In this document: piece after piece, positions 4,298-8,264 of the stretch
Numbering within the stretch: the stretch's first letter is position 1
Layout of the letters: each line of letters opens with the position of its first letter
Origin: Candidatus Bathyarchaeia archaeon
GTDB taxonomy: Archaea; Thermoproteota; Bathyarchaeia; TCS64
Direction of reading: 5' to 3'
DNA: 17,777 nucleotides
NCBI GenBank assembly: GCA_050014495.1
Contig: JBEKDF010000048.1
Span: 1 to 17,777, forward strand
Translations under genes and position numbers: made by a program
Notes under the pieces: model-generated
What the model was told of the DNA's origin: nothing
Database searches by the model: none
The model's input: the letters and a program-made list of their open reading frames with translations, nothing else

Positions 4298-4371
4298 GGG
4301 CCGGTCGTCCAGCATGGTAGGACGCCGCCCTTACGCGGCGGAAGTCGCCGGTTCAAGTCCGGCCCGGCCCA
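4298..4371 (+). tRNA. tRNA-Val(TAC), no intron, CCA not encoded
   Basis: Acceptor GGGCCGG/CCGGCCC+A; D stem GTCC/GGAC; anticodon stem CCGCC/GGCGG with loop CT-TAC-GC; T arm GCCGG-TTCAAGT-CCGGC. Confidence 0.97.
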
Positions 4372-4423: not shown

Positions 4424-5705
4424 ATGAAGGGACGCCTCTACGCCCCGCTACTCGAAGACCCAAAAATTAAGCGCTGGCACCAAAACTTAGCCCGTGGATC
4501 ACAAGTAACAGCCGACGTCTACCTCAGAAGACTAGGAAACTTCTGCGAGTCAACCAAAACCACACCACAACAACTCGCAGCAATGAACGAAGAAGAACTC
4601 TACAACCTACTACTAGACACAGTCACCAGCATGGAGAAGAACTACACCGGCAGCTACACACAATCCATAATAAAAGCCATCAAATCATGGCTAAAACACA
4701 ACGGAATCCAAGTCACGAAAGAGATCAAAATCAGGGGAGCCGAAGACGCCCCCACCCTCAAAGACGAGAAAGTACCCACACAGACTGAGCTCAAGAAAAT
4801 ATTCTTATCAACTGACTTGAAGGGTCGGACCGCTTCAGTCCTTGTAGCCCACAGTGGATTGAGACTTGAGACAGTTGGCAACTATTTGGGAGATGACGGG
4901 CTTAGGATCAGGGATCTACCTGAGCTCAAGGTTGAGGGCGAATCTATTGAGTTTGAGCAGATACCCACACTAGTAATCGTCAGAAAGGAAATCAGTAAAG
5001 CCGGCCACCAATACTTCTCATTCCTGTCTGAGGAGGGGTGCGGATACCTCAAAGACTACCTCGAAGCCAGAATGAGAGACGACGAAAAACTCGGAGCAGA
5101 TTCCCCGATTGTGACTCCTAAACAGAGGATGAAACCATTCATCAGATCCACCAACGTCGGCGACGTGATCAGAGACGGTATCCGTAAGGCTGGTTTCCCG
5201 TGGAGGCCCTACGTGCTCCGGTCATACTTTGACACTGAGATGATGCTCGCTGAGTCTAAGGGGCTTGTGCTTCGTGACTATCGTCAGTTCTGGATGGGTC
5301 ACAAGGGTGACATTGAGCATCGCTATACCTTGAATAAGGGTAGGTTGCCTGGTGAGGTTGTGGAGGATCTTCGTGGAGCGTATCGTCGGAGTCAGGAGTA
5401 TCTTGAGACGGGTAGATCTGAGTCTGATAGTGAGGAAAGGCTGAGGGATTCCTTCAGGAAGCAGCTTCTACTGGTAGCTGGGTTTACGTCTGAGGAGGTG
5501 GATGGGATGGATCTGTCTATGGATGATGCCTCCTTCCAGGAGATGGTTAGGAGGAGGCTTGGGGGTCAGTCTGGGGATGGGGGCGGTTCTCAGAGAGTTG
5601 TATCTGTTGGGGACGTGGATGGGTTCCTCTCCCGCGCGCGCGCGTCTGCCGGGGGATAGGATCATTCTGAGGGGACCTGGAGAGTTTTCGCCGTCAAAGA
5701 GTTAG
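4424..5705 (+). CDS. Tyrosine recombinase/integrase next to tRNA-Val; extreme C-terminus frameshifted at a (CG)n tract
   Basis: HSGLR, YVLRSYF, WMGH and RY catalytic motifs; TTATAA about 25-30 nt upstream. The main frame stops at 5659, but the likely true tail LPGDRIILRGP...* continues in another frame to 5705. Confidence 0.85.
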
Positions 5706-5786
5706 TGGTTATCTGTTTGCTGAGAACCAACAGGGCTATTTTTCACATGTATTTATCGAATATTCCTTTCGCGCATGCGCGCTTCT

Positions 5787-5806
5787 ATGAGAACGTTTTC
5801 AGGAGA
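5787..5806 (+). repeat. IS110 sub-terminal inverted repeat (downstream end)
   Basis: ATGAGAACGTTTTCAGGAGA versus the reverse complement of 7064-7084, ATGAGAAACGTTTTCAGGAGA (one indel). Confidence 0.85.
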
Positions 5807-5830
5807 CCCGATGTCCGGGCGGCGTCCCAG

Positions 5831-6907
5831 TTAGTTCCGCAGGCCATCTAACGCTTTCTTACCCATGTTCTTAAGTTTTCTCTCCGTCAACCCCCTATTC
5901 TCGCCCCTGTAAGGCTCCTCCCTCACCAGCATGAAGTACATTATCCTCGCCATCTCATGGGCCACAGCCACCACTGCGCACCCAGCGCCCCTCCGCCGCG
6001 AAACCCGCTCATACATCCCTCCGAGCCTAGAATCATGCCGGACAGCAGTCTGAGCCGACTCCACCAACGCCCACCTCAACCTCTTATTACACGGACCCGA
6101 GACCCCACCGATCTTGGTCCGCTCCCCGGACTGGTGGACGCTTGGCACAAGCCCCATCCACGACGCGAACTCCTTGTCGCCGCGGAACCGGCCGACGTCG
6201 CCGACCTCCGACACAACGAGCATCGCGGTGAAGTACCCGACGCCCGTCATAGTCATCAACAGCCGCACACGCCGGTCCTCCGCCGCGAGTACCGCGATCT
6301 TCTCCTCAATAAGCGTAACCTGGGCGTCCACCGCCTCCAGGACCGCCAGGTCGCTTCTGAGTATGGCGTCGTCCATGAAGCCGAGGCTCAGCCCTCTCAG
6401 CCACTCGATGTTGTCCCTGCTGAAGGGCGTCGCTCCGGGCATGCGGAGCCCATGTTTGTCGAGGAGACCGTGGACCCGGTTCTTCACCTCTGTCCTGTTC
6501 TTCACCAGGTTCAGGCGGTGGCGGAGGAGTTCCCGGCGGCTCCTCAGCTCCTCTCCCGGCACGTAGCAGGTGAAGAGCATGTCGGCTCGGAGTAGCCCGG
6601 CTAGGGTTCTGGCGTCGACCTTGTCGGTCTTAACCTTCGCCTCCGCAATCAGCCTCGTCTTGGATGGGTTTGATAGGGCTACGTCGACTCCGCGTTCCTC
6701 GAGCCTGTCATGGATCGGGATCCACAGGTTCCCAGTGGACTCGACAACGGCCTTCACCTCGTCGTGGAGGGTTGTTAGCTTCACCGCGAACTCCTCGATT
6801 CCATCGGTGTCATTCGGGAAGCGCAGTTCATCAAGTAGGGTTCCATCCTCATCTAGGATGGCGGCTTGACACATCTTTTTATGGACGTCTATTCCCACGT
6901 ACTTCAC
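5831..6907 (-). CDS. IS110-family DEDD recombinase/transposase
   Basis: YVGIDVHK, VVESTG and KTDKVDA (DEDD), and GLVPSVHQSG (catalytic Ser). Likely start GTG 6907 after the RBS GAGGTGA; the ORF track uses 6916. Confidence 0.95.
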   Translation of the reverse strand: MKYVGIDVHKKMCQAAILDEDGTLLDELRFPNDTDGIEEFAVKLTTLHDEVKAVVESTGNLWIPIHDRLEERGVDVALSNPSKTRLIAEAKVKTDKVDARTLAGLLRADMLFTCYVPGEELRSRRELLRHRLNLVKNRTEVKNRVHGLLDKHGLRMPGATPFSRDNIEWLRGLSLGFMDDAILRSDLAVLEAVDAQVTLIEEKIAVLAAEDRRVRLLMTMTGVGYFTAMLVVSEVGDVGRFRGDKEFASWMGLVPSVHQSGERTKIGGVSGPCNKRLRWALVESAQTAVRHDSRLGGMYERVSRRRGAGCAVVAVAHEMARIMYFMLVREEPYRGENRGLTERKLKNMGKKALDGLRN

Positions 6908-7055
6908 GGGTGTCACCTCGGGTGGCCTGCGGGCGGCACGCTCCTATCGGGTCTCTCCACGGACCAGTCGGGTAGCCGCTCGGATCTGGCCCAGTCTGCC
7001 TTAAGGGTCTCACGTGGACCAAGCGCGCGGCGGGCCTAGGCCACCCGCGACACCC
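6908..7055 (-). ncRNA. Bridge/seek RNA of the IS110 element
   Basis: Outer stem 7038-7055/6908-6928 encloses two arms (6988-7036, 6930-6982). Each arm has a large internal loop capped by a GGUC..GACC hairpin. Loop strands match the insertion flanks and the element ends. Confidence 0.85.
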
Positions 7056-7063
7056 TCGGAGTC

Positions 7064-7084
7064 TCTCCTGAAAACGTTTCTCAT
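7064..7084 (-). repeat. IS110 sub-terminal inverted repeat (upstream end)
   Basis: Partner of 5787-5806, located 5 bp inside the CT core at 7090-7091. Confidence 0.85.
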
Positions 7085-7089
7085 ACCGT

Positions 7090-7558
7090 CTGCCTTGTCC
7101 CGTTATTGGTGTAAAATGGTTTTAAATACTCTTTATCCAAACAAGTCATCGAATGGACCCCATCGACGACCAGATCATCAACACCCTTAGAAACGGCAAA
7201 CTCATGAGTTTCGAAGATCTCCTCAATAAGCTGGGTGTTTCACACAACACACTCAGACTCCACCTCGACGCGATGGCCGAGAAAGGAGAGATCAAGAAGG
7301 AAAAACGACCCTCGAAGGGGCGTGGGAGGCCTAGCTATGCCTACTCCGCGGATTCGGTAACCGTAAGGCGGTCTGCTGCTCGCCTTAACCGGGTATCGGG
7401 TGTGGTTTCTCTGAGTTTTGAGAGGCTGAGTCAGGTCTGCAGGTTCGAGAAGGGCGGCTACTGTAAGAGGTTAAGAGGTAGGTGTTACGCCTCGGATTGC
7501 CCCCAAATTCGGTGAGGGGGATTATAACCATTTAAAACCATTTTAGGGAACAGGGCAG
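7090..7558. mobile_element. Putative non-autonomous inverted-repeat-bounded cassette carrying one HTH gene
   Basis: Perfect 16-bp inverted repeat TAAAATGGTTTTAAAT (7112-7127) / ATTTAAAACCATTTTA (7530-7545), plus an outer imperfect inverted repeat CTGCCTTGTCCCG (7090-7102) / GGGAACAGGGCAG (7546-7558). Confidence 0.55.
7153..7515 (+). CDS. Winged-HTH transcriptional regulator with a C-terminal four-Cys motif
   Basis: LGVSHNTLRLHLDAM...GRGRPSYAY HTH and wing; tail C-x7-C-x6-C-x4-C. TATA TTTTAAATA about 25-30 nt upstream. Confidence 0.85.
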   Translation: MDPIDDQIINTLRNGKLMSFEDLLNKLGVSHNTLRLHLDAMAEKGEIKKEKRPSKGRGRPSYAYSADSVTVRRSAARLNRVSGVVSLSFERLSQVCRFEKGGYCKRLRGRCYASDCPQIR

Positions 7559-8264
7559 TGCGCACTTGGAAAACACATGAAGCAGATCTCGGAATACCAT
7601 TTCCTCTTGTTCCGCCTTCGATATGAACAAGTCTAACGGGAGCCTCCTTTTTCAAATCCAATAAAAATATACCAAGTAGTTTGTTAGCGTTAGCTCGAGG
7701 TAGATGAATATCTACACCCGAATGACCACCGAGTAGACCAGAAATATCCAGTCTAAATTCAAGCCAATCTATGGTAGACTCGTAGGAATAAGGTATTTTA
7801 TATTGGGTTCCACTACCTCTAGCTGAGCCAATTATTATTACACCTGCTTCTTCACTATCTAAATTAATCATGTACTTCCCGGTGAAGAAACCAGCCTTCA
7901 TACTAAGTGCGCCTTTTAGACCAGTTTCCTCCTCAACCGTCATTAAGGCTTCAATTTTACCATATTTTGTTAATTTTTGATCACAAAGTAAACCCATCGA
8001 AACTGCTAAGCCAATTCCGTTGTCTGCGACCAGACTTGTACCATCGGACTTTACTATATTTCCTTCGACTCTTACAGGTATTGGGTCCTTATCGAAGTTG
8101 TGCGCGTACGCGCGCTTTCTTGAAGCTAATGTTATTTACACTAGCCCAATTTTCCAACCAATTCTGAAGATCTTTTTCTTTACCTGAACAACGTGGAATC
8201 TTGGAGATTTTTTTTTAAATATTGACCAAGCTAATTCTGGTTCGAGCCCATCGAGTGTTGACAT
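7558..8264 (-). pseudogene. pepD: Aminoacyl-histidine dipeptidase (M20C) pseudogene
   Basis: N-terminus from ATG 8264 (MSTLDGLEPELAWSIF../ISKIPRCSGKEK) with an A9 frameshift. Internal deletion at 8099-8115. Then HNFDKDPI, ADNGIG, TVEEETG, NLDSEE, GGHSGVDI and RANANK. 3' truncated at about 7560. Confidence 0.88.

Follow-up and report, generated by a model that had tools for sequence, protein, structure and literature searches.

Bridge RNAs have been predicted for most insertion sequences of the IS110 family, namely for 85.7% of the catalogued IS110 elements and 93.0% of the catalogued IS1111 elements (PMC11208160, which like the other papers below is cited for the accessible parts of its text). 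The protein table of the same paper includes the archaeal elements ISH18, ISHvo9 and ISHvo10, its Supplementary Table 5, in which each catalogued element is given with the position of its RNA, may extend to ISH18 and ISHvo9 as well, and archaeal IS110s are described as several lineages mixed with bacterial ones (10.1101/2024.06.21.599552). A larger set of 32,190 predicted RNAs makes no mention of Bathyarchaeia in its accessible text and may include the clade discussed here (10.64898/2026.10.21.760802). In the literature we searched, in which subscription journals are thinly covered, no description of an archaeal bridge RNA or of this clade was found among the matches listed, nor a paper describing the RNAs of ISH18, ISHvo9 and ISHvo10. 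The locus had earlier been read from its sequence alone as a new archaeal variant, and this novelty was overstated given that archaeal IS110s of the branch are catalogued and bridge RNAs are predicted for most of the family. We regard the element as a layout and target variant of a known mechanism and not as a new system.

The window, by which we mean the whole stretch of 17,777 nucleotides that was analysed, comes from a Bathyarchaeia-type archaeon and carries an intact IS110-family element with a predicted bridge RNA. The element is inserted at the end of another mobile element, and the letters in the loops of the RNA match its own ends and that end. The recombinase gene (5831 to 6916, minus strand) is an intact DEDD frame that scores above the cut-offs of both PF01548 and PF02371 and reaches 259 bits with NF033542 (cut-off 140). 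With residues numbered by a hand count, D10, E59, D98, D101 and S263 correspond in the alignment to the catalytic motifs of IS621, that is the DEDD RuvC-like residues and the Tnp serine, and the likely start is the GTG at 6907, which lies 3' of a GAGGTG ribosome site. The closest relatives come from genomes that bear the title Bathyarchaeota and reach 77-97% in their best segments. Besides the copy in the window there are a second full one (C17, 90% protein identity) and three partial ones in the source genome, and the RNA is kept in only two copies of the element within that genome. The ends carry sub-terminal inverted repeats of 20-21 bp, where the left one (5787-5806, plus strand) begins 3 nt inside the core and pairs with the right one (7064-7084, plus strand), which is 5 nt plus the core away from the element end. 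Outside of the repeats there are 7 bp with one core (7085-7091) and 3 bp (5784-5786), and the spacing from repeat to core differs by one base between elements. The downstream end of the element is about 47 nt long and the RNA lies in the long left end, upstream of the gene. An Rfam search of the window returned tRNA only and no other match.

The element resembles each of the closest described systems in part. It has in common with IS621 and ISCro4 (IS622) a DEDD and serine recombinase with the RNA upstream of its gene, a target loop followed by a donor loop, simple internal loops with left and right guides, a CT core, and two-base handshakes that fit the partner DNA (PMC11208160, PMC11208158 and PMC13626964; the fit to partner DNA is the definition given in PMC11208158). 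However, the recombinase is distant from both (E 5e-14 and 1e-11), the sub-terminal repeats are 20-21 bp long instead of the 2-3 bp described there, the interior is inverted relative to the core, which appears as AG on the RNA strand, a stem closes the two arms in an RNA of 127 nt rather than the reported 177 nt, and the left donor guide appears to be unpaired beside the core. The number of handshake pairs would go from 0 to 4 here, as compared to 1 to 3 in IS621 (PMC13626964). A sigma-70 junction promoter of the kind known from these elements was not found either: a scan of 5700-7200 gave no site, and no TATA-like motif was seen at the computed circle junction. In the end of the host element a palindromic, TATA-like TTTAAA at 7121-7126 precedes the start of a helix-turn-helix (HTH) gene by about 27 nt on one strand and the IS110 junction by about 30 nt on the opposite one, and might drive the RNA from the inserted copy.

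With the IS1111 group (ISEc11, ISPa11 and ISKpn4; IS4321 and IS5075; IS1383) the element shares the 7-bp and 3-bp extensions and an RNA in which the top-strand complement comes first, as that group is described in PMC11187229, and IS4321, IS5075 and IS1383 are likewise described as targeting the terminal repeats of other mobile elements. The RNA is however upstream here and not downstream, a position given as a rare exception among IS1111 elements (ISMtsp17, for example; PMC11187229), the donor guides sit in a simple loop and not in a multi-loop, and the recombinase is only 24-28% identical to those of IS4321, ISKpn2 and ISShdy1 and, in the tree described below, falls outside their branch. The narrow IS110 group has the RNA in a long left end as well, but it has no repeats or very short ones where ours are long, and the guide order here is not bottom-strand first. 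With its IS1111-type ends and guide order on one side and its upstream RNA and simple donor loop on the other, the element thus mixes features that separate IS110 from IS1111, and on these sequence features we assign it to the IS110 family as a carrier of a bridge-type RNA, and to neither of the two groups in their narrow sense. In a tree of 37 proteins, which leaves out IS621, IS110 and IS1111 and has long branches and no true root, the recombinase groups with relatives of ISHvo9, other Bathyarchaeia elements and three bacterial proteins (a 29-row branch, 99/96). The nearest named relatives are the haloarchaeal ISH18/ISHvo9/ISHvo10 group of ISfinder, and ISHvo9 is 40% identical. ISHvo9 (our locus L148, Haloferax volcanii pHV4) has the same layout of end spacing and repeat extensions, seen upstream of 598 and downstream of 1596, and by eye its upstream letters match the flanks, a CA core and the element end. 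It differs in this CA core, in its target, in having long non-coding stretches at each of its ends and in a more elaborate upstream RNA.

The core of the predicted bridge RNA covers 6920-7046 on the minus strand (127 nt, 71% GC) as delimited by homolog alignments and a covariance model, and it is composed of a closing stem (7046-7038 with 6928-6920), a target arm (7036-6988) and a donor arm (6979-6933). The sequence-only reading had placed the RNA at 6930 to 7036, which takes in both arms but leaves out the closing stem beyond them; its general picture of a bridge-type RNA with a target loop, a donor loop, handshakes and a three-way junction is borne out by the homolog alignments, and the strings it quoted at 5777-5784, 5785-5788, 7084-7087 and 7088-7096 and for both arms within 6930-7036 on the minus strand are all present. 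In the target loop the left guide with the core, CCGCGCG-CU (7022-7030, minus strand), matches 5777-5783, an assignment that also draws on covariation, and the right guide with core and handshake, AAGGC-AG-AC (6994-7002, minus strand), is the exact complement of 7088-7096 (9/9), as had been claimed. The left donor guide (6966-6974, minus strand) opens with UACC (6974-6971), and the proposed match of UACC to the TACC at 7084-7087 holds. The letters that follow do not match, and the CU at the end of this guide may reach over a bulge to pair with the core. The right donor guide with core and handshake, AUAGG-AG-CG (6939-6947, minus strand), agrees with 5780-5788 at 8/9 positions plus one wobble. 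On the DNA, all on the plus strand, positions 1-7 of the left target are at 5775-5781, where 32-34 of 36 elements agree with the guide at positions 3-7, and 11/36 and 22/36 at positions 1 and 2. The right donor arm is at 5784-5788, with T5784 as a variant of this copy that makes one G-T wobble with the guide, the left donor arm is at 7083-7089, with the GT at 7088-7089 as the partner of the target-loop handshake, and the right target at 7092-7096 is the terminal repeat of the host element, as the genome copies of that repeat show. The donor-loop handshake CG pairs perfectly with 5780-5781 of the target. Both handshakes of the window therefore fit the partner DNA, with no Watson-Crick pair before strand exchange and four after it.

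This arrangement depends on the register of the crossover, which we place at a CT core at 5782-5783 on the left and 7090-7091 on the right (both plus strand). The uninterrupted target GCGCG-CT-GCCTT has 12 exact copies in the same genome, and therefore the left core is 5782-5783 and the element end starts at 5784. A looser form of the motif gave 62 matches in one genome scan, and 46 in a second scan as compared to none in the reversed genome. CT-CCTAT, preceded by GCGCG or GTGCG, stands at all four of the genome's other left junctions, and the letter after the core is C in 35 of the 36 distinct elements whose guide ends in CUU, with T only in the copy of the window. The right core is placed by contigs of other runs that align from 7090; two of these in X3 and two in X6, which are two other runs, are preceded by GCGCG-type letters and are other uninterrupted host ends, not an empty allele of the window locus. 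The presence of the short core at both junctions and once in the empty target is thus seen by way of comparable empty sites elsewhere in the genome. None of the sequencing runs listed as carrying the sequence was an RNA run, which has no bearing on expression. The contigs of eight DNA runs showed no circle joint and no empty allele of the window locus, where two joints in X13 with sides of less than 30 nt were left out of the circle and empty-site evidence.

The earlier reading had put the left core at 5785-5786 with a donor-loop handshake of GA and one wobble. This is 3 nt too far to the right and is ruled out by the empty sites, the other left junctions and the C after the core in 35/36 elements. 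Its match to the left flank (5777-5784) is good through the core at 5783, but the eighth letter, T5784, is a coincidence of the window copy. With T5784 specific to this copy, it follows that the left guide includes the core, that the right donor guide is AUAGG-AG and that the donor-loop handshake is CG. The pairing of AUAG with the CTAT at 5785-5788 is real, but the guide is longer and spans the core, and the recombination substrates that had been suggested are out of register by the same 3 nt.

A check that had been called for is whether the guides change with the DNA across homologous elements. We gathered 24 genome loci, 30 more from a search of the class (401 genomes, 47 of them with a match at E 1e-40 or better) and, out of 240 metagenome loci, the best 80, and skipped loci without both ends as well as 8 from the second set whose places were represented before. 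Of 81 loci tried, 63 were parsed and 18 dropped (8 with an RNA that did not parse, 5 without a downstream junction, 5 in which a shared core or the upstream junction was missing). Since the parser worked with a set spacing of 3 and 5-6 nt and required a shared dinucleotide, this set is no test of spacing. With L097 left out because of a parsing error and duplicates merged there were 56 distinct two-ended elements in 13 guide groups, which were defined by the RNA alone, and one row was drawn per group in 5000 draws. The cognate pairing was above the shuffled one for all four guides: 5.59/7 vs 2.51 for the left target guide (0 of 5000 draws, both taken as the best of two registers), 4.72/5 vs 1.55 for the right target guide (0 of 5000), 4.40/5 vs 2.92 for the left donor guide (0 of 5000) and 5.00/5 vs 4.14 for the right donor guide (1 of 5000). 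The guide groups are kin, and thus the shuffles overstate the significance. Across these 56 elements all four guides vary along with the flanks and the element ends.

The donor loop had been called the weaker of the two assignments. This does not apply to the right donor guide, which matches 5/5 in 55 of 56 elements over five different donor arms, but it remains fair for the left one, which is real and short. In the 50 near elements (at least 60% identity, 8 groups) the successive positions of the left donor guide match in 46, 50, 50 and 48 and then in 14, 4 and 0 elements, its final CU equals the core in 35/50 near and 1/6 distant elements, and a reading of this guide anchored on the core also lies above the shuffles (4.49/7 vs 3.06), which favours neither reading over the other. 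The target-loop handshake goes with the donor (1.77 vs 1.37 shuffled, 0.004) and not with the target of its own loop. In the donor loop, the first handshake base tracks the target across the 8 near groups (0.87 vs 0.31, 0.004), matching as C/C, T/T or G/G in 48 of the 50 near elements. In these elements there are 3-4 handshake pairs after exchange in 47/50 and none before it in 40/50. Within the 8 near groups alone the covariation of the handshake with the donor and of the right donor guide is not significant (0.13 and 0.12). None of the six elements of less than 60% identity has a donor-loop handshake that fits the target, and each of them has one pair before exchange; these elements (L039, L040, L046, L047, L034 and L036) keep an A at the first base of this handshake, which pairs with their own donor. 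A handshake paired with its own DNA before exchange is the state that inhibits IS621.

The suggestion that the RNA should be reprogrammable has its counterpart in nature, where both target guides and the handshake have changed along with the target in L088, L090, L092 and L094 (77-81% protein identity). Five further targets are seen in L101, L112, L116, L124 and L132, and in distant clades the core is changed to CA in the DNA and in both right guides. The guides are not strict. In the GCGCG group, positions 4-5 of the right target match in 21-22/36 elements and position 1 is discordant in 5/36, and the matches are poor in L064 (1/5 on the right) and in L121, L126 and L131 (2-3/7 on the left).

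The folding of the single sequence, which had been proposed as a check, gave no support (z = 0.34; 129 of 200 shuffles fold as well), and three windows together gave z values of 0.34, -1.92 and -0.70, again with no support for a fold. The model fold of the window RNA is at -42.1 kcal/mol, as compared to -58.1 kcal/mol for the minimum-energy fold. The window RNA alone disfavours the model fold because its GC-repeat guide pairs elsewhere, and with a gap of 16 kcal/mol a protein or the kinetics of folding would be needed to reach it. The support for the fold comes from comparison. Alignments of 18 and of 16 near homologs show the closing stem, the two arms and two inner hairpins, with few double changes (6/30 pairs) and a consensus fold of -39.6 kcal/mol for the 16 sequences. 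The covariance model built from these 16, another check that had been named, found 16/16 held-out upstream RNAs (43-51% identity) among 32 loci at E 1.7e-6 or better. In the held-out RNAs 435 of 456 cells are paired, with many double-sided changes, and the hairpins alternate among GGUC/GACC, GACC/GGUC, GGGC/GCCC and GCGC/GCGC. Over all 24 matches of the model, of which 8 are weak, double changes occur in 29/30 pairs, and 94% of the positions are paired as compared to 28-38% in slid controls; the alignment of the held-out and 24-match sets was fitted to the model and leans toward it. The two internal loops between stems are thus kept by compensatory change in the homologs. The model search missed ISHvo9 and L150 and found L138 and L149 only weakly.

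The same fold occurs downstream of the recombinase gene in two relatives of about 40% identity (L053:307-442 and L054:1384-1504, minus strand; E 0.015 and 2.5e-4), so the RNA is found at either end of the element within one branch. Three mini-elements of roughly 250-450 bp (L165, L166 and L175, the last with the RNA at 1501-1627) have no recombinase, keep both ends and the RNA, and would be candidates for movement in trans.

From the letters around the junctions, the target is the junction of a GCGC site with the terminal repeat of abundant IS5/IS1182-like elements. The host of our element is a non-autonomous element of about 470 bp (7090-7563, ending at 7559 with GCGC at 7560-7563) that has these terminal repeats and an HTH frame with a C-terminal cysteine cluster (7153-7515). 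The HTH frame recurs in relatives as cargo between the same repeats. The terminal repeat is common to non-autonomous elements of 430-480 bp and to 1.3-kb elements that encode a DUF772 and DDE_Tnp_1 transposase, IS5/IS1182-like and below all NCBIfam cut-offs. The host duplication is probably the 4-bp GCGC at 5777-5780, with the repeat starting G-CT and 5781 as its first base, and thus the left guide would read the duplication plus one base of the repeat. The 4-bp length was read by eye from six two-ended host elements and was preferred to a duplication of 6 bp. The right target guide reads the terminal repeat itself. Of the 12 exact target 12-mers, 10 run on into the terminal repeat. In the clade 31 of 33 elements lie against one or the other of two repeats of this kind, and a gene for a host transposase or an HTH protein is in the flank of 16/26 elements (with at least 400 nt of flank) vs 1/14 elements with other targets.

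Partial copies (G000:C9:85960, G000:C20:19448, L176 and L173) often break at GCGC tracts, the source genome has 512 GCGCGCGC sites, many of its contigs end at termini of the GCGC-targeting family, and this family appears to rearrange the genome heavily. On the left a tRNA (4298-4371) is followed by a XerA-like tyrosine recombinase gene (4424-5659; NF040815, E 9e-12, below the cut-off) that passes at its 3' end into a GCGCGCGCGCG tract near 5634, and the two are possibly an integrated element cut by rearrangement. On the right, the stretch at 7485-7997 (minus strand) is what we take to be a fragment of a peptidase-like gene; it is cut by the host element and its frame is not resumed on the other side.

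Taken together, 6920-7046 on the minus strand is very probably the bridge RNA of the adjacent recombinase, with loops that match the insertion site and the joined element ends. Since the loop letters match the element's own ends and the host end, it likely works like the bacterial bridge recombinases. The target loop would pair with GCGCG-CT-GCCTT and the donor loop with the two element ends, brought together in a circle of 1308 bp. By analogy with IS621, a recombinase dimer would sit on each loop, the top strands would be cut at the CT core by the D-E-D-D residues and the serine and then exchanged, and the handshakes would favour insertion over excision. The element would in this way settle on the ends of other mobile elements, and its insertion would likely jam one end of the host element. 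It is hardly credible that the stretch is a mere structured leader of the recombinase mRNA, or a set of chance matches in GC-rich sequence. It does end right at the ribosome site, its single sequence folds no better than shuffles and its left guide is a low-complexity GC repeat, but the loop letters vary with the flanks in 13 guide groups, AT-rich ones included, and the fold recurs downstream of the gene in L053 and L054 and in the mini-elements without a recombinase. The covariation already contradicts this reading.

A larger question is how much of the RNA does the work. As in seekRNAs, the target arm alone could be the working guide, processed as a short RNA, with the protein reading the 20-bp repeats and the donor loop being minor or vestigial. 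The long repeats and guide order of IS1111 type would agree with this, as would the left donor guide, which pairs well over 4 nt only, and the one-base variation between repeat and core; target-only short RNAs are reported to suffice for ISEc11 and ISEc21 (PMC11187229) and to dominate in CazIS110-1 (10.1101/2025.10.25.684509). Against it, the right donor guide tracks five donor arms in 55/56 elements, the 5-mer of the left donor guide varies with the donor and the core letters of the donor loop with the core, the handshake of this loop follows the target, and circle formation and integration of CazIS110-1 are described as needing the full RNA (10.1101/2025.10.25.684509). We therefore consider a target-only guide to be improbable. 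A different kind of alternative is compatible with the bridge RNA and competes on the chemistry only: the RNA may guide as proposed and the element spread by single-strand copy-out or half-match, and not by clean double-strand exchange. Elements with right or left flank mismatches, in which one guide only is matched, point this way, and both half-match and copy-out are described for IS621 (10.64898/2026.08.31.748434) and CazIS110-1 (10.1101/2025.10.25.684509). However, the mismatches would be explained equally well if copies that are about 85% identical underwent gene conversion or recombination, or if a sister RNA mobilised the element in trans, and we hold this route to be possible but rather unlikely.

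Going beyond the bridge RNA as such, we suggest tentatively, at somewhat less than even chances, that this is an archaeal branch that reads the seam left by the insertion of a transposon (duplication plus terminal repeat), uses the step from 0 to 4 handshake pairs as a ratchet, anchors its left donor guide on the sub-terminal repeat and employs a scaffold of about 125 nt at either end and in mini-elements. If true, a left donor guide that rests on the repeat and not on the core would mean a looser hold on the donor than in IS621. The mechanism and the targeting of the terminal repeats of other elements are already known from bacteria, according to the papers cited above. What the family gains is a compact and naturally diversified archaeal bridge scaffold, with dozens of natural guide-target pairs in which the handshake bases go with the partner DNA. 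That relatives have this fold at one end or the other is relevant to a proposed move of the RNA from end to end, and ISHvo9 of Haloferax volcanii offers a testable case of bridge recombination in a laboratory archaeon.
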